64,000 bases of DNA from an uncultured Peptoniphilaceae bacterium (GTDB taxonomy: Bacteria > Bacillota > Clostridia > Tissierellales > Peptoniphilaceae). The DNA lies in assembly GCA_964432945.1 (NCBI GenBank), contig CAYSPO010000001.1, positions 21,506 to 85,505 of the forward strand, read 5' to 3'. Shown in pieces: positions 3,684 through 27,595 of the stretch (the first letter of the stretch is position 1; every line of letters starts with the position of its first letter). Both the position numbers and the translations under genes were made by a program. The notes under the pieces are model-generated. The model saw only the letters and a list, made by a program, of their open reading frames with translations. It searched no databases and was not told the origin of the DNA.

Positions 3684-4426
3684 TGAATAAACTTTATATT
3701 ATAGGTATAGGACCAGGTGGAGCTGGCTCTATGACTTTAGATGCTATTGATAAGATTAAAGAATCGGATGCTATTGTTGCTTATGGCCCATATTTAGATT
3801 ATATAAAAGAAGCTATTGATATTGAAGGAAAAGAAACTTTTACTTCAGGAATGACTAAAGAAATAGAAAGATGTCAAAAGGCAATAGATTTAGCTTTAGA
3901 AGGAAAAACAACTTCTATTCTTTCTACAGGAGATGCTGGTCAATATGGAATGGCAGGTCCCATTTATGAGCTTTTAATTGAACAAGGAAAGATTAATAAA
4001 GTGTGTGTAGAGGTTATTCCTGGTGTTGGAGCTATATATGCAGCAGCTGCAGAAGTTGGAGCTCCGATAATGATGGACCTTGCTTTAATTAGTCTTTCTG
4101 ATTTATTAGTTCCTTGGGAAACAATTGAAAAAAGATTAGATAAGGCAGCAGATGCTGATTTTGTTATAGGAATATACAACCCTAGATCTAAAACTAGAGT
4201 TAAGCATTTACCGAGAGCTTTAGAGATAATAGGGAAATATAGAGATAAGGAAACTCCTGTAGCTTTAGTAAGAAATGCAGGAAGAGATGATACTTATATT
4301 GAATTAAGTAATTTAAATGATTTTGACTATGAAAAAGCTGATATGAAATCCTTGGTTATAGTGGGTAACTCTACAAGTATGATAAAAGAGGGACTGATGA
4401 TTACCAAAAGGGGATACAATATTTGA
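3683..4426 (+). CDS. cbiH: cobalt-precorrin-3B C17-methyltransferase CbiH
   Basis: Has YIIGIGPGG, STGDAGQYGMAG and PGVGAIYAAAA motifs. ATG overlaps the cbiG stop. Confidence 0.9.
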   Translation: MNKLYIIGIGPGGAGSMTLDAIDKIKESDAIVAYGPYLDYIKEAIDIEGKETFTSGMTKEIERCQKAIDLALEGKTTSILSTGDAGQYGMAGPIYELLIEQGKINKVCVEVIPGVGAIYAAAAEVGAPIMMDLALISLSDLLVPWETIEKRLDKAADADFVIGIYNPRSKTRVKHLPRALEIIGKYRDKETPVALVRNAGRDDTYIELSNLNDFDYEKADMKSLVIVGNSTSMIKEGLMITKRGYNI

Positions 4427-5154
4427 TTTGGTTAATTGGCGGGACTAGTGAAGCTAAACAATTTGTGGATAAGTTTCCTATGTCAGAAAAATTAATAGTA
4501 AGTGTTACTACAAACTATGGAGCGTCTTTAATTAAAGACTGTAAAGTAAAAATATCTGCTATGGATTACGAAGAAATGAAAGAATTTGTAGAGGAAAATA
4601 ACATCAGTGGAATCATAGATATGTCCCATCCATTTGCAGAAATAGTAACAAGTAATGCTCAAAAAATATCTAAGGACATGAAAATTAAATACCTTAGATA
4701 CATAAGACCTATTACCTCTAAGGCTGATTATAGTTTTAAAGAAATGAAAGAATTTGAAAAGTTTTCTAAAGAGAATAAAGGTACATATTTCATTACCGTT
4801 GGAAGTAAAATGATTGGGGAACTTGAAAGTATAAAAAACAAGAATAGATTTATTTATAGGATTCTTCCAATGACTAAAAGTATAGAAATTTGTAGAAAAT
4901 ATAATATTAAATTAGAGGATATTGTTTGTATGAAAGGACCTTTTTCTTTAGATATGAATATAGCTTTTCTAAAAGAATTTTCTGCTGATTATATGCTTAT
5001 GAAAGATAGTGGAGAAGCTGGAGGAATGGAAGCTAAGTTAGGAGCTTGTGAAAAATTAGGAATAAATTCTTTAGCTTTTACCAGAAAATCAGAAGAAGGA
5101 ATACAAGATATAGATGAACTTATATACAAAGCTATTGTTCTATTAGGAGAATAG
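4423..5154 (+). CDS. cbiJ: cobalt-precorrin-6A reductase CbiJ
   Basis: TTG start overlaps the cbiH stop (TTGA). Has N-terminal LIGGTSEA and MKDSGEAGG motifs of the CobK/CbiJ family. Confidence 0.8.
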   Translation: MIWLIGGTSEAKQFVDKFPMSEKLIVSVTTNYGASLIKDCKVKISAMDYEEMKEFVEENNISGIIDMSHPFAEIVTSNAQKISKDMKIKYLRYIRPITSKADYSFKEMKEFEKFSKENKGTYFITVGSKMIGELESIKNKNRFIYRILPMTKSIEICRKYNIKLEDIVCMKGPFSLDMNIAFLKEFSADYMLMKDSGEAGGMEAKLGACEKLGINSLAFTRKSEEGIQDIDELIYKAIVLLGE

Positions 5155-8665: not shown

Positions 8666-9832
8666 ATGAAAAAAGGATTAATATTAACTTTATTATCATT
8701 TGTTTTAGTTTTTTCAGTAGGTTGTAATCAAACAACAGAAACTGAAGCTACAACTGAAGGAAATAAAGAAGTAGCAGAAACTACCGAAGCTACAACTGAA
8801 GAAGAAAAAGTAACACAAACTGAAGAAGTTTCAGAAACAGAAGAATCTGAAGAAGAAGAAACTGAAAAAGTTTGGCCAGAAGAATTAAAAGGTAAACTAA
8901 CTTTTGAAGTGGATCTTTCAAAACACGAATCAGATAAACCAGTTCGCCTATGGCTACCAGCAGCTCAGTCAGATGAATATCAAGAAATTTCTAATGTTGA
9001 AGTAGTAGTTGATGAACAAACAGCTACAACACAAACAAATAAAGATGACTTAGGAAATGAAATGATATACATTGAATTTTCTCCTGAAGCTAAAGAACGT
9101 AAAGCAATATATTCTTTTGACCTAGTTAGAAAAGAAATCAAAGCTCCTAAATTTGCTGAAGAAGAAGATTTTGATGCAGCAGAATATGAAGAATATCTTT
9201 CATCATCTAACCTAATGCCTTTAGATGGTAAAATTAAAGAACTTTCTGATGAAATAACAAAAGGAAAAGAAACAGTAGAAGATAAGGCTTTAGCTATCCA
9301 CGAATGGATTTTTGAAAATATGGTTCGTAATGATGATGTAACAGGATGTGGTCTAGGAGATGTGGAAAGCACATTAGTATCTTTAGATGGTAAATGTACT
9401 GATATTGGATCAGTTAATATAGCATTATTAAGAGCTGCAGGAATACCAGCAAGAGAAATATTTGGTGTTCGTTTGAAAGACGAATCAGGCGTTTCTGATG
9501 TTACTAAAAGCCAACACTGTTGGGTTGAATATTATCAACCAGGAACAGGCTGGGTAACAACAGATGTTGCAGATGTTCTAAGAGCTGTTCTATATGAAGA
9601 TTTAGAAAAAGATGGAGATAAAGCACAAGAAATAAAAGAATTCTACTTTGGAAATCTAGATGCTGTTCGTGTTGGATTAACAACAGGAAGAGATTTAACT
9701 TTAGTTCCAGAACAAGAAGCTCCATTTGTAAATCAATTTGGCTACCCATATGCTGAAGTTGATGGAGAACCTCTTGATTTCTATAATTCTGAAGAATTCG
9801 CATACAGCATAACTTTTGAAAAAGCTGAATAA
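8666..9832 (+). CDS. transglutaminase-like lipoprotein
   Basis: ATG 8666 gives a signal peptide plus lipobox (LVFSVGC). An acidic T/E-rich linker follows. Cys-His-Asp core GKCTDIGS...QHCWVEYY...GWVTTD matches the transglutaminase-like fold. Confidence 0.7.
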   Translation: MKKGLILTLLSFVLVFSVGCNQTTETEATTEGNKEVAETTEATTEEEKVTQTEEVSETEESEEEETEKVWPEELKGKLTFEVDLSKHESDKPVRLWLPAAQSDEYQEISNVEVVVDEQTATTQTNKDDLGNEMIYIEFSPEAKERKAIYSFDLVRKEIKAPKFAEEEDFDAAEYEEYLSSSNLMPLDGKIKELSDEITKGKETVEDKALAIHEWIFENMVRNDDVTGCGLGDVESTLVSLDGKCTDIGSVNIALLRAAGIPAREIFGVRLKDESGVSDVTKSQHCWVEYYQPGTGWVTTDVADVLRAVLYEDLEKDGDKAQEIKEFYFGNLDAVRVGLTTGRDLTLVPEQEAPFVNQFGYPYAEVDGEPLDFYNSEEFAYSITFEKAE

Positions 9833-9855
9833 TCCTAAAAAAATCTAAAATATTA

Positions 9856-9889
9856 AACCACCTAGATTTAGGTGGTTTTTCTTTTTTTA
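9856..9889 (+). terminator. rho-independent terminator
   Basis: AACCACCTA-GATT-TAGGTGGTT stem-loop followed by TTTTCTTTTTTT. Confidence 0.7.
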
Positions 9890-10005
9890 TAAGTAAATCT
9901 GAATATTAAATAAAATTATAATTTTTTATAATATTTTGCTTATAAAAAGAAGAATTTTTGAGCTTTTGACTTTCAAATAAGAAATAAAATCTCAGAGATA
10001 TTTAT

Positions 10006-10034
10006 TTGATTAATTATAAATTAGTATATATAAT
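10006..10034 (+). promoter_or_regulatory. candidate sigma-A promoter for the first Cys-Sec-COOH gene
   Basis: TTGATT, 17 nt, TATAAT, about 38 nt upstream of ATG 10073. AT-rich context makes chance matches common. Confidence 0.4.
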
Positions 10035-10072
10035 CAATTGAAAATAAATAATCTTAAAAAAAGGTGTGAAAT

Positions 10073-10576
10073 ATGGATCTTAAAAAGCTAAAAATTAAAA
10101 ATATATTACTAGTTATATTTGCTATAGGAGTGTTATATATAGGATTTACCAGCTTTAATACTGGAACAGAAGATGACGTAGTGGATATAGGTGTATCTGA
10201 AGATAATGAATTATTGAAGTATTTTAGAAAAAGCTATCCTGATTATGAGGTTCTCAAAGCTGGTGAAGAAGATGTAGATGCAAATGGATTTAATGATCTA
10301 GTTGTTATTTATAATATTTCAAGAGATAAGCTAGGTTACCCTACAAAAAACGAAATGTTAGTTATATTAAATAATAATGGTGTTTATGAAATGACTCAAT
10401 CTACAAGAGCACCTATTGAAAAACATGTAATACAGTTTCAAAACATTGAAAATGATGATAGGTATGAAATAACAGTCTCTGGTTCAAAAAGAGGGCAATA
10501 TGGTTTTGGTATATATGAAATAAAAGACAATGCTCTTGTGAATATATATGGTGAAGGAATGGAAAAATGCTGATAG
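10073..10576 (+). CDS. membrane-anchored protein ending in Cys-Sec-COOH (TGA 10571..10573 read as selenocysteine, real stop TAG 10574..10576)
   Basis: Has an N-terminal TM helix. It is a paralogue of 15355..15897, and both end ...GEGM(E/D)xC with the identical hexamer context TGC-TGA-TAG. A hairpin follows in the 3' UTR. This may correspond to the family I recall being named 'Cys-Cys-COOH (seleno)protein SaoC'; I cannot verify that here. Confidence 0.7.
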
Positions 10577-10585
10577 AAAATATGT

Positions 10586-10602
10586 ATGCTTAGGATAAGC
10601 AT
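10586..10602 (+). promoter_or_regulatory. candidate SECIS hairpin (3' of TGA 10571)
   Basis: ATGCTTA-GGA-TAAGCAT, starting 15 nt after the TGA. The apical loop contains GG. Confidence 0.5.
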
Positions 10603-10650
10603 GAATAAGAAAACTTTATATAAGAATAAAAAATTAAAATGATACAATCG

Positions 10651-10681
10651 TTGGGTTAAAGTCGACTTTAATGTTTATACT
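10651..10681 (+). promoter_or_regulatory. MerR-type promoter/operator P1
   Basis: TTGGGT (-35), a 19-nt spacer, then TATACT (-10). The perfect 16-bp palindrome TTAAAGTCGACTTTAA (10656..10671) lies inside the spacer. Confidence 0.6.
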
Positions 10682-10696
10682 TAGAAGGAGGTGAAT

Positions 10697-11248
10697 ATGA
10701 TGAAAATCAAAGATGTAAGTGAATTGACAGGTTTAGCTGGATCCACTATAAGATATTATGATAGCTTAGGACTATTAGGTCCTATAGATAGATTATCAAA
10801 TAATTATAGAAAATTCAATAAACATGATGTAGATATACTTAATTTTATCTCTGAGTCTAGAGATCTTGGTTTTTCTCTTGCCGAAGTTAAAGAAATTTTG
10901 CAAATGAAAAATAGCGGTAAAGAGCCATGTGCGTATGTTGAGAATAAGATTAAGGAAAAAATTACCTTAATAGATGAACATATAAAAGATTTGGAAAAGA
11001 AAAGAGTTGAACTTAACAAGCACTTAGAAATTGGACATTCTGTTTGTGGTTGTCATGGTAATGTTTGTCATTATATTGAAGGCTTAGTTGGAGTAGAAGA
11101 GGAGGATTCATCGACTTGTTCCTGTGGGTGTGAAGAAGAAATAGAGAAATCATCAGGATGTTCTTGTGGATGTGAAGAAGAAACTGAGTTAGACAATTCT
11201 TGTTCATCAAAGAATTCTTCTAAAAACAAGGGTTGTAGCTGCTGTTAG
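10697..11248 (+). CDS. MerR-family metal-responsive transcriptional regulator with a Cys-rich C-terminal tail
   Basis: HTH MKIKDVSELTGLAGSTIRYYDSLGLL. Cys residues in EPCAY and VCGCHGNVCH sit at positions comparable to the three metal-ligand cysteines of MerR. The tail has SCGCEEE repeats and ends GCSCC. Start is ATG 10697 or 10700, after AAGGAGG. Confidence 0.85.
   Translation: MMKIKDVSELTGLAGSTIRYYDSLGLLGPIDRLSNNYRKFNKHDVDILNFISESRDLGFSLAEVKEILQMKNSGKEPCAYVENKIKEKITLIDEHIKDLEKKRVELNKHLEIGHSVCGCHGNVCHYIEGLVGVEEEDSSTCSCGCEEEIEKSSGCSCGCEEETELDNSCSSKNSSKNKGCSCC
11117..11188 (+). repeat. tandem 42-nt-period coding repeat (CSCGCEEExE twice) in the regulator tail
   Basis: TGTTCCTGTGGGTGTGAAGAAGAAATAGAG (11117..11146) and TGTTCTTGTGGATGTGAAGAAGAAACTGAG (11159..11188). 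Confidence 0.8.
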
Positions 11249-11279
11249 GCTGAATTACTTATCTTACCTATAGAAAGTT

Positions 11280-12080
11280 GTGATTATGGGAAAAATAAAG
11301 ATAGAGAATTTCAGAAATTTTATCAATTTATTTTTAATAGCTATAATTATTGGACTATCTATAATAATTTTTAAAAATAATAATCCAAAAATAAAAGAAA
11401 ATAATAATAAGCCTGTAATCAGAATTGGTGCAGGTGATGATATATCAGGAATTGTTCTTGACTATATGCAGTCAGAAACTAATGAATTTAAGTTAGAACC
11501 TTATTTTATCAAAGATTGCTGAGCGACTACTTCTCAATGGGCATTGAGTAGTAATGCGTATTCTATGGCAATTGTTTGTAAAGATGCTGCAAAAAAGTAT
11601 ATAGACACAAGTCCTGATTTTGAAATTATAGGACCTGTAATTATGAATTCAGACATAGTTTTAGAGTCGACTAGAGATATTACAAGTGTAGGTATTACAA
11701 GTAAGAAAAGTTATCACAGAGATTTTGTTCGTGAATTATATGGTGAAGATGTTGAAATTATTGAGCTTATGCCTCAAAGTTTGCCATATGTTTATGAAAC
11801 AGCAAGAGTCGATGCAATAATAACTGATATAACAAAATTTACGAGTAACATAAAAGGAGAAGTGAAAAGTCCTAGTCAGGAAGATTATGTAACAAATATT
11901 TTAATAGCAAGAAGTGATTTTATTGGAACTAAAGAATATAAAGATTTTGTTAATAAATATAATGAAATCGTAAATGAACTAAATTCTGAAGGTCTTCCTA
12001 TTGATTATATAGAGAAAAAAACAAATTTAGATGAAGGGAGTTATGAGTATTGGAAAGTAAAGCTACTAACAATAAAGTAG
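11280..12080 (+). CDS. membrane-anchored ABC substrate-binding-like selenoprotein (Cys-Sec at TGC-TGA 11517..11522)
   Basis: Track ORFs 11280..11522 and 11544..12080 are in the same frame, separated only by the TGA and 7 sense codons. Joined length is about 266 aa with an N-terminal TM anchor. It lies directly upstream of the cognate permease and ATPase. A hairpin follows the TGA. Confidence 0.65.
11528..11553 (+). promoter_or_regulatory. candidate SECIS hairpin (3' of TGA 11520)
   Basis: TACT/AGTA plus CTCAAT/ATTGAG stems with one T-T mismatch. Apical loop is GGGC. Confidence 0.5.
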
Positions 12081-12847
12081 TCTCATTTTTTCAAGATGAG
12101 ACTACCAAACATACATTAGCAAGATTACTTACATATGGAACACTCATTTTAGTTTGGCATCTTTTAGCCACTTATATCGATATACCACTTGTTTTGCCCG
12201 CTCCATTAGATACATTAAGGGCTTTTATAGACAGTATCATCGATATTAAAGTTATGAGCAATGTTGGTATAACTTTAATGAGAGTTCTAAAGGGATGGGG
12301 ATTAGCCTTAGTCTTTGGAATACCTATCGGTATTGCAATGGGATTATCTCCTATTTTTGACAGTGTTTTTGGAGGTATAGTTAACTCTTTAAGACAAGTG
12401 CCAATGATGGCTTGGGTACCTCTTTCAATTATTTGGTTTGGAATTGGTGATGGTCCAACGTTATTTATGATTGCACTAAATGGAGTTTTCCAAATCATTA
12501 TGAATACATCTTCAGGTGTGGCTAATATTTCTGAAGATTATTATAATGCAGCCAAAAGCATGGGTGCTAGTAAACTAAGTATCTTTAAGAACATTATTAT
12601 CCCAGCAGCTCTACCAGATATGTTAACTGGAGCAAGATTAGCCATTGGAGCTGGCTGGATGTCTGTTATCTGAGCGGAGTTCATTGCGACAAGTGCCGGG
12701 CTCGGCTACGAAATGATAGAAGCACAATCTATGATGCAAACTAATAAACTTATAGCGTTAATGTTTTTAGCAGCATTTATAGGGTTTTTAATTGACAATG
12801 TAATACAATTTCTAAATAAGAAATTAACAAAATGGAGATATGTATAG
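12050..12847 (+). CDS. ABC transporter permease (NitT/TauT-SsuC type) with in-frame TGA 12671..12673 read as selenocysteine
   Basis: TTG start 9 nt after GAAGGGAG. After the TGA, 57 further sense codons (AEFIATSAGLGYEMIEAQ...LMFLAAFIGFLIDNVIQ...) run to TAG 12845..12847. They align residue-for-residue with the C-terminus of the paralogue at 30608..31453 (VAAEMLPGSMSGLGYLIAHA...IICIGLIGALFDAIYS). The next gene starts at 12848. Confidence 0.75.
12693..12709 (+). promoter_or_regulatory. candidate SECIS hairpin (3' of TGA 12671)
   Basis: A locally GC-rich hairpin, GTGCCG-GGCT-CGGC(T)AC, in an otherwise AT-rich gene. The loop contains GG. Confidence 0.45.
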
Positions 12848-13633
12848 ATGAAATTAGTTGTTGATAATTTATGTAAATCTTATTCGAATTCAGGAGAAGA
12901 TAATCATGTTTTAGAAAATATTAGCTTTTCAGTTGAAGAAGGAGAGGTTGTAACCCTTTTAGGTCCATCAGGATGTGGAAAGACAACAACTTTAACTATT
13001 ATAGCAGGTTTCAATGATTATGATTCAGGTCAAGTTTTATTAAATGGAGAATTAACAGACAAACCAGGTCCTAATAAGGGTTTTATGTTTCAAAACTATG
13101 CATTATTTCCTTGGATGACGGTAGAAGAAAATATTCGCTTTCCAATGAAGCAATTAAAATATGATAAAGAAAAAATCGATAAAAGAACTAAGTATTTATT
13201 AGATCTGGCTAGGTTGACTAAATACAAGGATTATTACCCTCATCAAATATCTGGGGGTATGAAACAAAGAAATTCTTTGGTGAGAGCATTAGCTCTTGAG
13301 CCAGAAATTTTATTGATGGATGAACCTCTTGGGGCTTTAGATATTGAAATGAGACAAAGTCTTCAAGATCAATTATTAGAAATATTTGATGATCTAAAAT
13401 TAACAGTAATAATAGTAACCCATGATGTGGAAGAAGCAATTTACTTGAGCGATAGAGTAATACTTATGTCCACAAATAAGGGTGAGATTATTTTGAACGA
13501 AAAAATAACTATGCCTCACCCAAGAAAAAGAAAAGATCCTCAATACCAACAATATGTAGATTTGTTATCAGAAAAGTTTATAGAAGCAAGTAAAAAAGGA
13601 GCACAAGCTCAAGGAAGTAGTGAAGATGAATAG
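12848..13633 (+). CDS. ABC transporter ATP-binding protein (NitT/TauT family)
   Basis: Walker A GPSGCGKTT, signature ISGGMKQR, Walker B LLMDEPLGALD. Confidence 0.9.
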   Translation: MKLVVDNLCKSYSNSGEDNHVLENISFSVEEGEVVTLLGPSGCGKTTTLTIIAGFNDYDSGQVLLNGELTDKPGPNKGFMFQNYALFPWMTVEENIRFPMKQLKYDKEKIDKRTKYLLDLARLTKYKDYYPHQISGGMKQRNSLVRALALEPEILLMDEPLGALDIEMRQSLQDQLLEIFDDLKLTVIIVTHDVEEAIYLSDRVILMSTNKGEIILNEKITMPHPRKRKDPQYQQYVDLLSEKFIEASKKGAQAQGSSEDE

Positions 13634-14270
13634 TAAAATAGATATTTCAGAAGTTCTTACACATGAAGATAATTTAACTTCAGATGAAAAGTTTTATAGA
13701 TTAAAAATTGTAGAAAAACTGGCAACAGAAGATAGACCTATTAGATTAAATGAGCTTCCAGAAATAAGCTCTCAAATGTATGAAATTCTCCACGACAAAG
13801 GAGCTATTGTATTAGATGAAAATAAAGAAAATATAATGTATGCTTACCCTGTTTCAGGGCCGCATACAAACCATGAAATTCATTTGGCAGATGGCAGGGT
13901 CTTTCATTCTATGTGTGCTATAGACTCTCTTGGCTCTACTTTTACCTTTGGACAAGATTTAACTATAAAATCTCAGTGTTCTACCAGTGGAAAAGAAGTT
14001 ATTGTAGAAATAGAGAATGGAAAAATTAAATCTACAAATGCTGATGATATTTATGCTATTCATGTTGATTTAAATGCATTTGAAGAATGGTCAGCTAGCT
14101 GCTGAAATGTTATGAATTTTTTCCGTGGGAAAGAAAACATGATTGAATATTACGAAGGAAATGAACTTGACGAAAAGACTAGCTTTGGTCTTGATTTAGA
14201 TACAGCATTTAAAGTAGGAAAAAAAGTTTTTAGTGTTGAACATACCTTATATGAATTTGTAGTTAAGTAA
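13620..14270 (+). CDS. organomercurial-lyase (MerB) family selenoprotein (Cys-Sec at TGC-TGA 14100..14105)
   Basis: FHSMCAIDSL matches MerB YAWCALDTL (Cys96/Asp99). SASC-U-NVMNFF matches MerB SFCCHVHFF (Cys159/Cys160). Reading through the TGA adds 54 codons to TAA 14268..14270, giving 216 aa, which is MerB-like length. Start is GTG 13620 or ATG 13626. Confidence 0.75.
14112..14140 (+). promoter_or_regulatory. candidate SECIS hairpin (3' of TGA 14103)
   Basis: ATG..TTTTTTCC-GTG-GGAAAGAA..CAT imperfect hairpin with a G-rich apex. Confidence 0.4.
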
Positions 14271-14281
14271 GGAGGGATTGG

Positions 14282-15352
14282 ATGTTTTTGTCATATATTA
14301 AAGAAATTTTACTCGCTTCATTAGATTTACTTAACGGTACATCCGCTTGGCTTATTGCAAGTTACCTTTTAGCAGGACTTACAAGAGATATAATTTCACC
14401 AGCTAGGCTGCAAAAGTCTTTAGGGAATACAAAAATATCCTCTATTATAAAATCTACATTACTAAGTATGTGTTTACCTGTATGTAGCTGTGGATCAGTT
14501 CCCTTAGGTATAAGTATGTATGAATCAGGGGCTTATGTCGGGCCAACCTTAGCATTTTTTGCAGGCTCTCCTATCTTAAATCCAGCTTCAATTATTTTGA
14601 GCTTTGGTTTGTTAGGTAAAGAAATCACTCTTATAAATATTGGAGCAGGTTTAATTTTACCTATTATAATCGGAGTTTTGGGAAATAAATTAGCTGGCGA
14701 TGAGCTTATGGATACCAAAATTCAAAAAGAGATAGAAAATATTAAAATTGAAAAAGATGAAAGATCTATTTTCTCAAAAATGAAATCAGGACTTAAATGG
14801 GTAAATAGTGAATTTGCTGTTAATTCTAGCAAATATATAGTTTTTGGTATGCTTTTTGGAGGGTTTTTATTAGTATCTTTTCCTCAAGCATTTATTCAAA
14901 AATATCTCGGTGATCCGGGAGTTATGACACTTTGGAATGTTGCACTTCTGGCTACTCTTATGTATGTATGTGCAGTAGGGCATATTCCTTTTATTGCAGC
15001 TTTGATAGCTAGTGGGGCATCCCCTGGAGCAGCTATAACATTTTTAATGGCAGGAGCAGCAACAAATATTCCAGAAATTATAAGTATAGGATCAATGATT
15101 GGTAAAAAAACAGCAGCCATCTATACTATTGTAATTAGTTCATTTTCTATGCTTGTAGGTATGATTACAAACAAGTTATTAATGCCTGGGTTTCAAAGGC
15201 AAATTGAATATGATGAAGTTGATAAAGCTATAAATACTGCTAATAGTCTTTTATTAAGTTTTCCTGATTGGGTTAAAAACTTATGTACTGCTATTGTAAT
15301 AATTTATTTTCTAAAGGCAATGTATAATTCTTTAATTAGAGATAGGATTTAA
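14282..15352 (+). CDS. polytopic permease, DUF318/ArsP-like family, CxC motif
   Basis: About 10 TM segments in a two-repeat architecture. Motif LPVCSCGSVPLG. Paralogue of 18162..19256 and more distantly of 46081..47121 (FCSCSSIP). Good RBS AGGAGGG. Confidence 0.8.
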   Translation: MFLSYIKEILLASLDLLNGTSAWLIASYLLAGLTRDIISPARLQKSLGNTKISSIIKSTLLSMCLPVCSCGSVPLGISMYESGAYVGPTLAFFAGSPILNPASIILSFGLLGKEITLINIGAGLILPIIIGVLGNKLAGDELMDTKIQKEIENIKIEKDERSIFSKMKSGLKWVNSEFAVNSSKYIVFGMLFGGFLLVSFPQAFIQKYLGDPGVMTLWNVALLATLMYVCAVGHIPFIAALIASGASPGAAITFLMAGAATNIPEIISIGSMIGKKTAAIYTIVISSFSMLVGMITNKLLMPGFQRQIEYDEVDKAINTANSLLLSFPDWVKNLCTAIVIIYFLKAMYNSLIRDRI

Positions 15353-15354
15353 CT

Positions 15355-15897
15355 ATGATTAATCTAGATAGGGAAAAGAGAATTATAAATATTTATTATA
15401 AGGAAAAGCTAGTTTTAACAATAGACGCAAGCTTAATGACTAAATTTTTTCTTACAGTAATAGTTATTCTAGTTGGTTATATAGGCTATATTCAAAACGC
15501 TAGTTTTAAAGAAGCAGATTTTGGAGTTGAAAAAGATAATCCACTTTTACTTTATTTTGAAGAAGAATTTCCTAATAATCCTGTTATCAAATGTAAATTA
15601 GGTGATGTAAATAACGATGGTAGAGATGATTTAATAGTTATTTACCAAATGCAGTTTCAAGATGGTAATGAATTGCGAGTGGTCTTTGATACAGATAATG
15701 GATATGAAGTTTCTAATCAAAATAGAGCTCCTTATGAAAACCAAACTATTGAATTAATTGATATAGATAATTCTCCTCCTATGGAATTTATTGCATCTGG
15801 CTCTAAAAGAGGAAGATATGGCTATGAGATTTATAGGGTTGATAATTCTACTCAGTTAGCCAGCGTCTTTGGAGAGGGAATGGATGTGTGCTGATAG
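15355..15897 (+). CDS. membrane-anchored protein ending in Cys-Sec-COOH (TGA 15892..15894 read as Sec, stop TAG 15895..15897)
   Basis: Paralogue of 10073..10576. They share blocks DVNNDGRDDLIVIY / DANGFNDLVVIY, SGSKRG(R/Q)YG and GEGM. Same TGC-TGA-TAG ending, with a downstream hairpin. Confidence 0.7.
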
Positions 15898-15906
15898 GTT
15901 TATAAA

Positions 15907-15922
15907 AAGTTCAGGTGAGCTT
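15907..15922 (+). promoter_or_regulatory. candidate SECIS hairpin (3' of TGA 15892)
   Basis: AAGTTC-AGGT-GAGCTT hairpin 13 nt after the TGA. The loop contains GGU. Confidence 0.45.
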
Positions 15923-15970
15923 ATATATAAGAAAATCTTATCCATTATAAATTAGCATAAGTAAATATTA

Positions 15971-16003
15971 TTAGACTATAAAGACGACTTTATAGTTTAT
16001 AAT
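15971..16003 (+). promoter_or_regulatory. second MerR-type operator/promoter P2
   Basis: ACTATAAAGACGACTTTATAGT (15975..15996) has core TAAAGACGACTTTA, matching 13 of 14 positions of the P1 core TAAAGTCGACTTTA. Its centre lies at the same distance from a -10 hexamer (TATAAT 15998..16003) as in P1. It could also fold as an RNA hairpin. Confidence 0.55.
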
Positions 16004-16075
16004 AATATTATGATATTGAGTATATATATATTCAACAAATAATGTTATACATAGGTAAAACTTTTAGGAGGAAAT

Positions 16076-17329
16076 ATGAAAAAGAAAGTATTAGCAAGCA
16101 TATTAGCTTGTACTCTTATTCTTTCATCTTTTACTGCTTGTAAAAACTCTGGAACATCATCTGTAGAAAAAATCGAATATGATCCTGTAGCAGAGCTTGA
16201 AAATTTCGAATTAAGAGAAATACCAGAAGCAGATAAAGATTTCAAAATTGAGATGGGCTATAATAACTGTGACCATATGGTTGGAGCTATTATAGGGGAA
16301 GAAGCAGGAATTTATGACGCTTTAGACTTAAATGTAAATGTAACTCAAACTAACAATACAAACATAGCTCAAGCCATGTCAACTAATGAAATGCAAGTTG
16401 GTTATATGGGAATTGACGGAGCAATAAGATCTCACAATGAAGGAGCACCTCTATTTATGAGTGCTGCAAATCATATTGGTGGATCAAGATACTTAGTAGC
16501 TTCTAATGATATTAAAAAGCCAGAAGATTTAATTGGTAAAACATTAGGAATTTCTCAAGATACAGCGAATAACCCAGAATGGTTACAATGGGCAAAAGAA
16601 TTAGGAATTCCAGCAGAAGCTGAAAACTATGAAATAGTAGAAATAGCACAAAAAGATGGACCTTTAGCTTTAAAAGCAGGACAAATAGATGCATTCGCTT
16701 GCTGTGATCCGTTTGCTTCACAATCAGAGCTTATGGAAGTTGGCCACATTATGGCAATAGGTTGGGGAACTGATGTAGAACAAGCTGAAAGTAATGATGC
16801 ATGGGGCATGTGCTGTATACATGCTATGAACCAAAACTTTGAAAAAGAACATCCAGAACTAGCTCAAAGACTTATGGTAGCTCATATATTAGCAGTTCAA
16901 TACTTATATGAACATCCATACAATGCGGCTATGATGTTTGCTGAAGGGTTTGGGACAACACCAGAAGTTGGTTTATTAACAGTATATATGAAGACTGTTG
17001 CTGAAGGTAGAACAATAACTTGGGAATTTGATGAAGAAAACCTTAAAAACTTCGTAAAAGAGTATGAAGATTGGAATGTTGATCCAGAGAAAATTCCTGA
17101 TTTAAGTAAAATAGAATCATTTATGGGTAAAAATATGCTTGAAGAAAGCAATATTATGCACTTTGAGGATTACCTAGAAGAATCAAATTTAGATGAAGTA
17201 TTCCCACTTGGAATGCCATTTGAAGATTGGTTAGCGAAAGCTAAAGCAATAGATGGTATTGATAATGAAATGGGTAATGATATTAAAGTTCCAGAAATTT
17301 ACCAAGAACAAGGATACTCAGCTAACTAA
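16076..17329 (+). CDS. ABC substrate-binding lipoprotein (NMT1/SsuA-like, NitT/TauT family)
   Basis: Signal peptide plus lipobox SSFTAC. About 417 aa and SsuA/NMT1-like (...GQIDAFACCDPFASQ...). Strong RBS AGGAGG. Confidence 0.75.
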   Translation: MKKKVLASILACTLILSSFTACKNSGTSSVEKIEYDPVAELENFELREIPEADKDFKIEMGYNNCDHMVGAIIGEEAGIYDALDLNVNVTQTNNTNIAQAMSTNEMQVGYMGIDGAIRSHNEGAPLFMSAANHIGGSRYLVASNDIKKPEDLIGKTLGISQDTANNPEWLQWAKELGIPAEAENYEIVEIAQKDGPLALKAGQIDAFACCDPFASQSELMEVGHIMAIGWGTDVEQAESNDAWGMCCIHAMNQNFEKEHPELAQRLMVAHILAVQYLYEHPYNAAMMFAEGFGTTPEVGLLTVYMKTVAEGRTITWEFDEENLKNFVKEYEDWNVDPEKIPDLSKIESFMGKNMLEESNIMHFEDYLEESNLDEVFPLGMPFEDWLAKAKAIDGIDNEMGNDIKVPEIYQEQGYSAN

Positions 17330-17340
17330 AAAATTAAAAT

Positions 17341-17369
17341 AATAGGATCATTTATGATCCTATTATTTT
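17341..17369 (+). terminator. rho-independent terminator
   Basis: AATAGGATCA-TTTA-TGATCCTATT followed by ATTTTG. Confidence 0.6.
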
Positions 17370-17466
17370 GTTATTATCAATTAGTATAAGAAATTTTTAT
17401 GATAAAGAATGATTATGCTTAATGAAATTAAACTATGCTAAAATATAGTAAGTAAGAGGAGTGTGT

Positions 17467-17730
17467 ATGAGAGATAAGGTTTTAGTGGAATTTATCAACA
17501 CTTGACCTAGTTGTGATTCACTTGGCAGGTCGGTTCAAGAAGTAGCATCACAATTTGGAGATAAGGTCGAGGTAAAGCTTTATTTCGCAGGAAAAGATGT
17601 TGAATATATTGCCAAATATGGAATGATATATTCAGGGACGATGATAATTAATGAAACTAAAAAAGTACAAAGACTTAGCAGATCTAATATTGAAAAAGAA
17701 ATTAGGGCTGCAGTAGAAGAAATTCAGTAA
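17467..17730 (+). CDS. small thioredoxin-fold selenoprotein with UxxC motif (TGA 17503..17505); not in the ORF track
   Basis: ATG 17467 follows AGAGGAG. Translation is MRDKVLVEFINT-U-PSCDSLGRSVQEVASQFGDKVEVKLYF...GTMIINE...EEIQ, 87 aa, stop TAA 17728..17730. It aligns with the CxxC protein at 45731..46069 (ILGSGCAKCKQLE...). A long hairpin follows the TGA. Confidence 0.7.
17511..17553 (+). promoter_or_regulatory. candidate SECIS hairpin (3' of TGA 17503)
   Basis: Outer stem TTGTGAT/ATCACAA and inner stem CTTG/CAAG. The apical region is GCAGGUCGGUU, which contains GGUC. Confidence 0.5.
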
Positions 17731-17747
17731 AATATTGGAGGTATTTA

Positions 17748-18080
17748 ATGAGAGTTGCTTACGTAATGGGTTCAGAAAATGCTAGAAAGACAGTTAGAGA
17801 TATGATAGTTCCACAAATGGAAGCAAGGGAACATGTTGCAGAAGTTGTAGCAATGTTTTTTACATATGACACAACTTTTATGCTGTTAAAAGATACTGAT
17901 CTTGGAAATAGACTTCAAAAGTTAGCTGATGAAAAAGGCTTGATGATAGTTGCTTGTGACCAATGTGTTATTGAAAGGGAAATTGATGATAAGCTTATTC
18001 CTGCAGCAAGTTTAGGATGCTTTCCAATGGTTTATGGAGCATTAAATAGTGCAGATATAGACCAAGTTATATCCATCTAA
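17748..18080 (+). CDS. DsrE/DsrF-like sulfur(selenium)-relay family protein
   Basis: 110 aa with a DsrE-like pattern (MRVAYVM..., IVACDQCV active-site-like Cys). RBS GGAGG. Confidence 0.6.
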   Translation: MRVAYVMGSENARKTVRDMIVPQMEAREHVAEVVAMFFTYDTTFMLLKDTDLGNRLQKLADEKGLMIVACDQCVIEREIDDKLIPAASLGCFPMVYGALNSADIDQVISI

Positions 18081-18098
18081 TCGGATTAATGTACTTGA

Positions 18099-18140
18099 AA
18101 TAAGCATCAATCTTAAATTAGATTGATGCTTATTATTTTT
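18099..18140 (+). terminator. rho-independent terminator
   Basis: 15-bp stem AATAAGCATCAATCT / AGATTGATGCTTATT followed by ATTTTT. Confidence 0.7.
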
Positions 18141-18161
18141 GCGAAATATGAGAGGTGAGAA

Positions 18162-19256
18162 GTGAATTTTATTAGAGAAGTAATTTTAACAGCATTAGAA
18201 CTATTAAACGGAACATCAACATGGATAGTAGTAAGTTACATAATAGCTGGACTACTTCATGATGTTATATCACCAGTAAGGTTTCAAAAAGGCTTAGGTA
18301 ATACTAAATTTTCTTCTATTGTAAAGGCAACCTTATCTGCTATGATTATTCCTATATGTAGCTGTGGATCTGTTCCTTTAGGAATCAGCTTATATTATTC
18401 GGGAGCTTATCTAGGGCCAACCCTAGCATTCTTAGCATCGAGCCCATTTTTAAATCCAGCAGCAATTATTATGAGTCTAGGACTTTTAGGTTGGGAGATA
18501 ACTTTAATTAATATAATAGCAGGGCTTTTCCTTCCTCTTTTAATAGGGGTAATTGGAAATAAAATAGGTGGAGATGAATTAAGAAAGCCTATGCTAGAAG
18601 AAGAAATAGTTAATATTTCTTTAGAAGAATCAGACGATAGAAGTCTTGTTGAAAAATTTAAATCAGGATTAATTTGGGTTTCTAATGATCTTGCATTAAC
18701 TTTAAGTAAATATACAGTCTTGGGAATGCTTTTAGGAGGATTGATATTATCTATTTTTCCAGAAAGCTTTATTCAAGAATATTTAGGTAATCCTTCATTA
18801 TTATCCTTGATGAATGTAGCAGTAATGGGAACGATAATGTATGTTTGTGCAGTAGGACATATTCCATTTATTGCAGCTTTAATAGTAAGCGGAGCATCTC
18901 CAGGCTCAGCTATTACTTTTTTAATGGCAGGAGCAGCAACAAATGTTCCAGAATTATATAGTATATATAAAATGATAGGAAAGAAAACAGCAGCTATATA
19001 TGGATTTATTGTAACAATTTATGCTTTTATTATCGGATATATCACAAACTTAATTTTAATGCCAGGATTTAAGCCAGTAGCTGATTTTTCTCAAGCAAAT
19101 AAATCGATTGAAATTGCAAACAGATTTCAATTTACAATTCCAGATCCAATTAACTGGATTTGTACAGTAATATTATTAATATTTTTTATAAAAAGTATTC
19201 GTCCATTTTTAGAAGATTTTGCTTACAAAATAAAAGGATTTTTTATAGAAGATTAA
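18162..19256 (+). CDS. polytopic permease, DUF318/ArsP-like family, CxC motif (paralogue 2)
   Basis: GTG start after GAGAGGTGAG. Motif IPICSCGSVPLG. Collinear and highly similar to 14282..15352. Confidence 0.8.
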   Translation: MNFIREVILTALELLNGTSTWIVVSYIIAGLLHDVISPVRFQKGLGNTKFSSIVKATLSAMIIPICSCGSVPLGISLYYSGAYLGPTLAFLASSPFLNPAAIIMSLGLLGWEITLINIIAGLFLPLLIGVIGNKIGGDELRKPMLEEEIVNISLEESDDRSLVEKFKSGLIWVSNDLALTLSKYTVLGMLLGGLILSIFPESFIQEYLGNPSLLSLMNVAVMGTIMYVCAVGHIPFIAALIVSGASPGSAITFLMAGAATNVPELYSIYKMIGKKTAAIYGFIVTIYAFIIGYITNLILMPGFKPVADFSQANKSIEIANRFQFTIPDPINWICTVILLIFFIKSIRPFLEDFAYKIKGFFIED

Positions 19257-19821
19257 TAAAAAGTAAAACTCAGAAAAAATAGATAATATATTGTAAAAAT
19301 AACTATATTTAATTCTAATAAAAGATATGGTTATTTTTATTTGTTTTTATAAATACACTTATTGAAAATAATAATATCTCTCAAATTATTAAGTTAAATT
19401 AACAAAGAATTAACAAAATATAAAAATATTTTTGAAAAATATGATAAATTTTGTTTATGATATAGTCTTTAATTTATAAATCATATTAATTACATCTAAA
19501 ATAGGCTATTTATAATAAGCTATGCTTATCAAATGAGTTATGAATAAAATAACATAATCTAAAAAGTAGTTTATATATGTTAAATTTAAATCGACCGAGA
19601 TATTTATCTAAGGTAAATAAATTTTTAATCGTTATAATATTTTTCTAAAAATAAATTAATTTAGAAAATTTTTTATTGTGTAAAAGTAAAGTTTTTGTAT
19701 TTTTAAGAAAGATTTGAATAATTTATTTTCTTTATTATAAATAAGTATTTAGAAAAATATTTATATATAAATTAATTAAATATTAATCTATAAAAATAGG
19801 TTAAGGATAGTAGGTTATTGT

Positions 19822-26422: not shown

Positions 26423-27595
26423 TTATAACATTTCAATAAAAGCAGAAATTCTTGTTGCTAACTGACCTTTGTCATTATCTGAGTAATCAGTTTCTATTTT
26501 CATATAAGGAATTCCTAAGTCTTCTTTTATTCCTTTTTCCATTTTAACTGCTTCAATATTAAATGTATGGCAAGATTGTAAAACTACATCAATAACCCCA
26601 TCTACTTGATATTTTTCACAAAGGTGTTTTGTATGCTCTATTCTATCATCATTAGGAGACATAACAGCGCAGCTAATTTCTAGATATCTATCGGAAATTG
26701 CTCTTAAGATATCATCAGCCTCAGTATCTACCATCATTTTCATAGTTCTTTCTCCACCACAGTTATCGTTACTAACTATGATAGCACCATTTTGTTCAAT
26801 CACATTACATACCTTATCTATAACTCCTCCAGTTGGACAGCCTGTAACTAGAATTCTTGGGGTATTAGGAGCTACGAGATAATTAGGATCTTTGGAATAT
26901 TGTTCTAAGGCTTGATCGATTGTGTTGCTAACTAACTCCGTTGAGTCTTCAACGGTGAATTGAAAAACATTTCTTTGAAGTGAAAGTGCAACTTGGCTAC
27001 CTGTTATTGCGGGTGGATTATATCCTTGAATTTCCATTAACTTCACATAACCTTCTCTCCAAGCATTTCTTCTTTTAGCAGCATTTCTAAGGTCTTCATC
27101 AGTAATTTCTATATCAAATAATTCTTCCAATTTCTCTTTTAAAAGTTTACATTCTTCATACCATATATCCCTTGCATAAGACCTATTTTGTGCTTGGGGT
27201 AGTTGCATTATATGAACATCTTTTAATTCCCCAAGAAGTTCATACATTTTTTTCTTACCATCACAAGTAGTTTCACCGATAATTAAATCAGAGAACCAAG
27301 TATAAGGACAGGTTTCAGTATAAGCAAAACCATATGTACTTTTAATAAGGGGACACATATTTTTAGGAAGAACTTTTTCTGCATCAGGTATAACTGAATC
27401 AGAAGTCCCACATAGACCAACAGCTGAAGCTCCTGCTGCTTCTATAATTTCAGTAGGAGTATAGGAACAAAGAGTTCCAATTAGTCTGCCACCATTTTCT
27501 TTAAACTCTTTTACATTTACAAAGCCTTCCTTTCTAGCTTCTTCAAATTCTTCAAAAGTTTTAGGAAGTAGGGCTTTTTCTTTTACTTTTTCCAT
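26423..27595 (-). CDS. double-cubane-cluster / 2-hydroxyacyl-CoA dehydratase (HgdB/BcrB) family anaerobic reductase, copy 1
   Basis: 390 aa with Cys-rich motifs LCSYTP, GLCGTS, NMCPLIKS and GETTCDGKKK typical of this family. Paralogue of 32316..33485. Confidence 0.7.
   Translation of the reverse strand: MEKVKEKALLPKTFEEFEEARKEGFVNVKEFKENGGRLIGTLCSYTPTEIIEAAGASAVGLCGTSDSVIPDAEKVLPKNMCPLIKSTYGFAYTETCPYTWFSDLIIGETTCDGKKKMYELLGELKDVHIMQLPQAQNRSYARDIWYEECKLLKEKLEELFDIEITDEDLRNAAKRRNAWREGYVKLMEIQGYNPPAITGSQVALSLQRNVFQFTVEDSTELVSNTIDQALEQYSKDPNYLVAPNTPRILVTGCPTGGVIDKVCNVIEQNGAIIVSNDNCGGERTMKMMVDTEADDILRAISDRYLEISCAVMSPNDDRIEHTKHLCEKYQVDGVIDVVLQSCHTFNIEAVKMEKGIKEDLGIPYMKIETDYSDNDKGQLATRISAFIEML

Follow-up and report, generated by a model that had tools for sequence, protein, structure and literature searches.

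A palindrome with perfectly complementary arms lies between a long run of genes and the gene of a lipoprotein binding protein in the window (the whole 64,000-nucleotide stretch of DNA analysed here), and the question arises whether it works as an operator in DNA, as a hairpin in RNA, or no longer works at all. The genes around it belong to an island that Pfam and NCBIfam scans identify as an SAO (selenocysteine-assisted organometallic) locus holding saoB, P, A, L, E, C, X, T and D. SAO has been defined as a nine-gene system (Haft & Gwadz 2022, bioRxiv 10.1101/2022.07.06.499078). NCBIfam cut-offs were passed by SaoC twice, SaoB, SaoL, SaoE twice, SaoX and SaoT; SaoD reached 161.9 bits, slightly below its cut-off of 169, and SaoP and SaoA were assigned from the Pfam families BPD_transp_1 and ABC_tran plus position. 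The island comprises saoC1 (10073-10573), a MerR-family metal-sensor gene on the forward strand (10697-11248; Pfam MerR_1 and MerR-DNA-bind) and, tightly packed behind this merR gene on the same strand, saoB-saoP-saoA-saoL-saoE1-saoC2 (11280-15897), which is presumed to be read as one operon from a promoter P1. No terminator was found inside this gene run, and its end lies 68-78 nt before the palindrome, which we call site 2. Further downstream are saoX on the forward strand (16076-17329), encoding a lipoprotein ABC substrate-binding protein (NCBIfam NF040735 SBP_SaoX, 459.9 bits with a cut-off of 300), saoT-saoD (17467-18080) and saoE2 (18162-19256).

Site 2 occupies positions 15975-15996 and reads ACTATAAAGACGACTTTATAGT, that is, 9-bp arms ACTATAAAG and CTTTATAGT in perfect complementarity around ACGA, with a core TAAAGACGACTTTA at 15979-15992; as a dyad it has no strand of its own. 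Direct reading of the forward strand places a -35-like hexamer, TAGACT, at 15972-15977, which aligns with TTGACC of relatives and stands 20 bp before a -10 hexamer, TATAAT, at 15998-16003, where the GTTTATAAT block is kept in all aligned promoters. We refer to this putative promoter as P2 and predict its transcription start near 16010. Its -10 hexamer ends 73 nt before the saoX ATG at 16076; the initial annotation had put the site about 80 nt upstream of the lipoprotein gene. A second element of the same build, P1, lies on the forward strand before merR (10650-10681) and consists of TTGGGT (10651-10656), a 19-bp spacer and TATACT (10676-10681). The P1 dyad TTAAAGTCGACTTTAA is perfect over 16 bp (10656-10671), with its core TAAAGTCGACTTTA at 10657-10670. 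It had been observed earlier that the cores are identical at 13 of 14 positions and that both dyad centres, between 15985 and 15986 at site 2 and between 10663 and 10664 at P1, lie 12.5 nt before the -10 hexamer; both observations were re-read and confirmed. The degenerate motif TAAAGNCGNCTTTA occurs twice in the window where 0.18 occurrences are expected, and 0 of 100 shuffled sequences reached two. Across the whole 1.43-Mb assembly it is found at four loci, the remaining two falling within open frames (438 and 315 aa), and the longer string TAAAGnCGACTTTAnnGTTTATA that is common to both sites occurs nowhere else in the assembly.

A dyad operator placed within a spacer of 19-20 bp is the signature of MerR-family promoters. 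The site 2 dyad sits between the -35 and -10 hexamers, as do those of P1 and of 13 relatives, and the spacers exceed the optimal 17 bp, measuring 20 bp at P2 and in all relatives and 19 bp at P1. The locus has its own MerR-family gene, and gene and site occur together across genomes. As judged from sequence, site 2 is thus likely to be the operator and promoter P2 of saoX, with a dyad for the MerR-family sensor of the island that is shared with P1.

The co-occurrence of site and regulator was followed in a survey of 301 Tissierellales genomes, 20 of which carry saoX. A regulator orthologue (46-56% identity) adjoins saoX in 13 of these 20, and every one of the 13 regulator-bearing loci contains the 32-nt architecture TTGAC(C/A)-TTAAAGTnnACTTTAA-GGTT-TATAAT, immediately ahead of merR-saoX in 11 genomes and of saoX itself in the two Lagierella genomes. 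Five genomes have a divergent saoX (37-40% identity) and no regulator, and in these no site of at least 10 bits was found; one more saoX locus ends at a contig edge and was left out of the site count. The first orthologues of the regulator were found in two relatives, both inside SAO loci. In one relative (G069) the promoter reads TTGACC-TTAAAGTCGACTTTAA-GGTT-TATAAT and precedes merR-saoX right after a separate, genuine terminator, and the order in Lagierella massiliensis is saoC-merR, then TTGACC-CTCAAGTTGAGTTTAA-GGTT-TACAAT, then saoX. Tissierella simiarum and T. praeacuta have two sites each, one before merR-saoX and the other before a Cys-rich CopZ/BFD-like gene that is followed in T. praeacuta by saoB-saoA...saoP. 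When eight promoters were aligned, conservation was limited to the block from -35 to -10 and the flanks were unrelated. The dyad of site 2 departs from the consensus of the relatives, TTAAAGTnnACTTTAA, only at -2 and +/-8. The two central bases of the dyad vary among relatives (CG, TG, TA, TC, CA, TT and GA), so that the search motif with a fixed central CG proposed in the initial annotation is too strict. Among 399 genomes across the class, the regulator matched at E<=1e-25 only in the genome of the window itself, which suggests that regulator and site are paired only in Tissierellales. Searching metagenomes with SaoX yielded no close relative of this genome, and a metagenome scan with TAAAGNCGACTTTANNGTTTATA returned one contig, whose promoter, MerR gene and neighbours are the same as in the G069 locus.

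These counts bear on the reading that some other, unlinked regulator binds the dyad, or that the dyad is a chance palindrome in AT-rich DNA. The composition of the genome speaks for it, since the assembly has a G+C content of 30.6% and TAAAG-N4-CTTTA occurs at 13 loci. Against this stand the presence of the element in 13/13 regulator-bearing loci and 0/5 regulator-less genomes, the spacer of 19-20 bp as a hallmark of the MerR type, the restriction of the full architecture to two sites in the genome and the absence of two core matches from the shuffled sequences; we regard this reading as highly improbable. The restriction to two sites came from a 32-nt promoter matrix built solely from six sites of other genomes, with which 2.85 million positions of the 1.43-Mb assembly were scored. 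Exactly two matches reached 12 bits or more, site 2 at 20.9 bits and P1 at 15.9 bits. The dyad alone is less distinctive at site 2, where 27-111 of the 2.85 million positions score as well, and site 2 becomes unique only once the -35/-10 geometry is counted in. P1 has the best dyad score anywhere in the genome with the matrix built from relatives.

Site 2 agrees with the 32-nt consensus at 26 of 32 positions and differs from it at -2, +/-8, +/-9 and in the -35 hexamer; the bases at -2, at +/-9 and at two -35 positions are unseen in relatives. By this comparison of sequences it is the most diverged member of the promoter set, and it can be recognised by its exact geometry and by where it stands, before saoX, the conserved target. 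Such divergence could also mean that site 2 is a decaying relic that has ceased to bind the regulator. It would have been duplicated together with a saoC paralogue, or would be a remnant of an ancestral gene order saoC-merR-P-saoX, and saoX would be transcribed by read-through or from another promoter. Both sites indeed follow the Cys-Sec-stop (TGC-TGA-TAG) of a saoC paralogue by about 85 nt with flanks that align colinearly, and site 2 is off consensus at five or six positions with a mediocre dyad score. The SaoC paralogues are however only 36% identical. Neutral DNA would have been scrambled over so long a time, whereas site 2 still has an intact TATAAT, exact spacing and its consensus matches. 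Both pairs of changes, at +/-8 and at +/-9, are moreover symmetric and preserve the dyad, and the position before saoX is that of the conserved target in all relatives. We consider decay quite unlikely on these grounds. The promoter blocks of P1 and P2 agree at 20 of 23 bases, and because the SaoC paralogues have diverged so far this near-identity must be kept up by selection and cannot be a leftover of duplication.

The putative sensor has an N-terminal winged helix-turn-helix and a dimerisation helix (Pfam MerR_1, 3.9e-17; MerR-DNA-bind, 1.8e-13), and among solved structures CueR is the nearest to it (4.7e-16). In the alignment C78 corresponds to S77 of CueR and C124 to C120, and C117/C119 adjoin the position of CueR C112; C78, C119 and C124 are invariant in three orthologues. 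A cysteine at the position of CueR Ser77 is the pattern of divalent-metal sensors such as ZntR, MerR and CadR. Every named equivalog (CueR, ZntR, CadR/PbrR and MerR) was missed, with best scores, in descending order, of 82.3, 73.3, 68.6 and 66.4 bits against cut-offs of 143-168, and since no NCBIfam cut-off was reached the regulator belongs to a distinct, unnamed subfamily. No other close MerR of this type is present in the genome, and as the single MerR-family gene of the island it is the obvious candidate to bind both sites. The protein carries a tail of its own (11095-11248, residues about 133-183), a 50-residue Cys-rich extension with a repeated CSCGCEEE and ending in GCSCC, which is missing from the orthologues (131-147 aa) and may serve as a buffer in the manner of a metallothionein or as a second sensing module. 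In all orthologues, too, 15-20 nt separate the -10 hexamer from the merR start codon (10681-10700 in the window). With the -10 so near the start codon, merR mRNA made from such a promoter would start only about 8-13 nt ahead of the gene and carry its Shine-Dalgarno sequence right at the 5' end, and the predicted P1 start point falls in or beside the merR ribosome-binding site.

A mechanism can be proposed for the two promoters by analogy with MerR, CueR and ZntR. P2 would be a sigma-70-type promoter whose over-long spacer of 20 bp (TAGACT-N20-TATAAT) holds the dyad, and the dyad would be recognised by a dimer of the MerR-family metal sensor encoded at 10697-11248. As in those systems the regulator might sit permanently on the dyad and leave the mis-spaced promoter shut as long as ligand is missing, and with a soft metal or organometal captured at Cys78/Cys119/Cys124 it would untwist the spacer and switch transcription on. 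The same protein would act at P1 (TTGGGT-N19-TATACT), the promoter in front of its own operon, merR-saoB-saoP-saoA-saoL-saoE1-saoC2, and P1 and P2 together would make up the regulon in this genome. Binding, activation by distortion of the spacer, the nature of the inducer and the transcription starts are the parts of this scheme that we infer.

The alternative that the palindrome acts as RNA had been raised in the initial annotation, where it was suggested that the element could form a hairpin after the gene at 15355-15897. It would then be a weak intrinsic terminator or a 3'-end stabilising hairpin of the merR...saoC2 operon, instead of or besides being an operator. Its location fits such a role, as site 2 follows the last gene of a long operon at the short distance given above with no other terminator before saoX, and a stretch of 46 nt around it folds at -13.5 kcal/mol (z -6.35), with a 9-bp core stem followed by UUUAUAAU. 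The 22-nt core alone reaches -6.9 kcal/mol, and with the core fixed 5-6% of shuffled or genomic flanks equal the observed extension. An intrinsic terminator combines a stable, G+C-rich stem with a U tract, whereas the site 2 stem has just two G-C pairs and its tail, UUUAUAAU, is U-rich in part only; the terminator scan passed over the site. P1 does not fold (-3.7 kcal/mol, z +0.83). The operators of relatives fold at -12.5 and -10.8 kcal/mol, in G069 despite the genuine terminator just upstream, and because they fold alike even beside such a terminator, foldability is a by-product of dyad symmetry. The position of the site in relatives also follows the downstream gene and not the upstream gene. 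Changes at +/-9 are symmetric in one site of T. praeacuta (site a) and in site 2 and asymmetric in two other relatives (G137 and G220) and in P1, and thus lend no consistent support to an RNA helix. No Rfam match was obtained at E<=1 over 9800-19400. An RNA function of the palindrome seems unlikely to us, and we keep to an operator shared with P1.

We also considered the site 2 dyad as a SECIS element of the saoC2 selenocysteine codon and rejected it. Bacterial SECIS hairpins lie about 10-40 nt after the UGA. The dyad follows the UGA (15892-15894) by about 85 nt, a separate hairpin is present 12 nt after this UGA, P1 is unfolded, and the gene ahead of the site in Tissierella and G069 is saoP, not saoC. 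The separate hairpin, AAGUUC-AGGU-GAGCUU on the forward strand (15907-15922), was identified by folding and is itself the candidate SECIS of saoC2. A counterpart is found after saoC1 at about 10585-10603, within 10581-10607, and these candidate elements of the 3' UTR are placed 12-15 nt after the penultimate UGA. Both saoC 3' regions further share the 9-mer ATAAGAAAA (10616-10624 and 15929-15937) between the SECIS-like hairpin and the promoter, which may reflect chance in AT-rich DNA or part of a 3' UTR function.

How far would transcription from P2 extend? According to the initial annotation one MerR-family protein drives two units, the second running from the lipoprotein gene through the UxxC (saoT), DsrE-like (saoD) and second permease (saoE2) genes. 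The idea of one protein for both promoters is well supported, at the level of sequence comparison, by the two copies of a MerR-type operator and by the distribution of the element among regulator-bearing and regulator-less genomes, but the extent given for the second unit did not hold. An intrinsic terminator on the forward strand (17335-17370), a 16-pair stem followed by a T run (-17.4 kcal/mol, z -7.8), closes the saoX unit, and another lies after saoD (18099-18134). No third operator was found before saoC1, saoT or saoE2, where the best scores with the full matrix are below -16 bits. Given the strong terminator after saoX and no operator for saoT-saoD or saoE2, P2 probably drives saoX alone. 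The sequence supports a regulon of P1 (merR-saoB-saoP-saoA-saoL-saoE1-saoC2) and P2 (saoX), and for annotation the transcription units of the island would be the P1 operon, saoX alone, saoT-saoD and saoE2. After saoC1 there is no terminator, so the saoC1 promoter may provide basal transcription of merR.

Close parallels to this arrangement are found in mercury resistance. In merOP of Bacillus RC607 and S. aureus pI258 and in Pmer of Tn501/Tn21 the dyad lies in an over-long spacer of 19 bp and closer to -35 than to -10. Gram-positive mer operons begin with merR, which controls them, and contain uptake components and a MerB-type lyase. The SAO island resembles merOP in the dyad within an over-long spacer, in merR leading its own operon, in the uptake genes and in the MerB-type lyase. 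It differs in the operator, here TTAAAGT-N2-ACTTTAA, in the 20-bp spacer of P2 and all relatives, and in the genes that would be controlled, which are SAO selenoprotein genes with no MerA; the regulator scores 66 bits against the NCBIfam MerR model, with a cut-off of 151. A spacer of 20 bp is also known from PzntA of E. coli. The regulator is like CueR in that this is its closest solved relative, but it stays below the NCBIfam equivalogs of both CueR (82 bits vs 147) and ZntR (68 bits vs 168), and unlike either of them this copy has the 50-residue Cys-rich tail. Whereas ZntR and CueR control efflux pumps, the targets here are the substrate-binding protein SaoX and an ABC importer with a lyase.

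We speculate that the MerR homologue is a dedicated SAO sensor (“SaoR”) whose ligand is the metal or organometal that is imported and cleaved by the SAO selenoproteins, its conserved targets being SaoX, as an extra binding protein, and the ABC importer rather than efflux or redox genes; we put this forward tentatively, as a possibility that falls a little short of being probable. If this hypothesis were correct, SAO would be a pathway for uptake and processing that is inducible and organised like a mer operon, and reporters of P1 and P2 would directly read out the natural substrate of the system. The SAO cluster combines a MerB-like lyase and an ABC importer with as many as six selenoproteins, and a MerR-type sensor encoded at the locus, together with two defined promoters, would offer a practical handle on what the cluster responds to. 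According to the survey the inducible part of SAO would include saoX in every case and, in this genome and Tissierella praeacuta, the importer as well, and among SAO lineages only Tissierellales carries the regulator. A MerR-type promoter pair for a regulator of the SAO locus, proposed here from sequence comparison, is not described in the SAO preprint (bioRxiv 10.1101/2022.07.06.499078), in whose text “MerR”, “regulator”, “promoter” and “palindrom” occur nowhere, and a 2026 selenoproteome review that lists Sao proteins makes no mention of MerR. Regulator and operator are in this sense an addition to the system as defined in the preprint, found so far only in Tissierellales.

Some further observations concern the SAO loci of relatives. 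The CopZ/BFD-like protein encoded behind the second Tissierella site has 143-155 aa, an N-terminal CPxC and a C-terminal CYC...C...CC, and resembles CopZ/BFD-like 2Fe-2S proteins; these second-site loci are at L016:181-672, L017:2532-3073 and, on the minus strand, L096/L105, and the gene is absent from the genome of the window. A second type of SAO locus within Tissierellales has a divergent saoX (37-40% identity) that is sometimes duplicated in tandem and sometimes contains an in-frame TGA, and loci of this type (L097, L100, L101, L104, L107, L116, L117 and L119) are without a MerR gene and without the operator. Finally, genes assigned by eye only to the 2-hydroxyacyl-CoA dehydratase/benzoyl-CoA reductase family lie within or beside the SAO ABC-transporter genes of T. 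simiarum and G069 (L016:719-1843, minus strand, and 3853-5009; L014:6435-7592), and the window itself contains a homologue on the minus strand at 26423-27595, about 7 kb downstream of the island.
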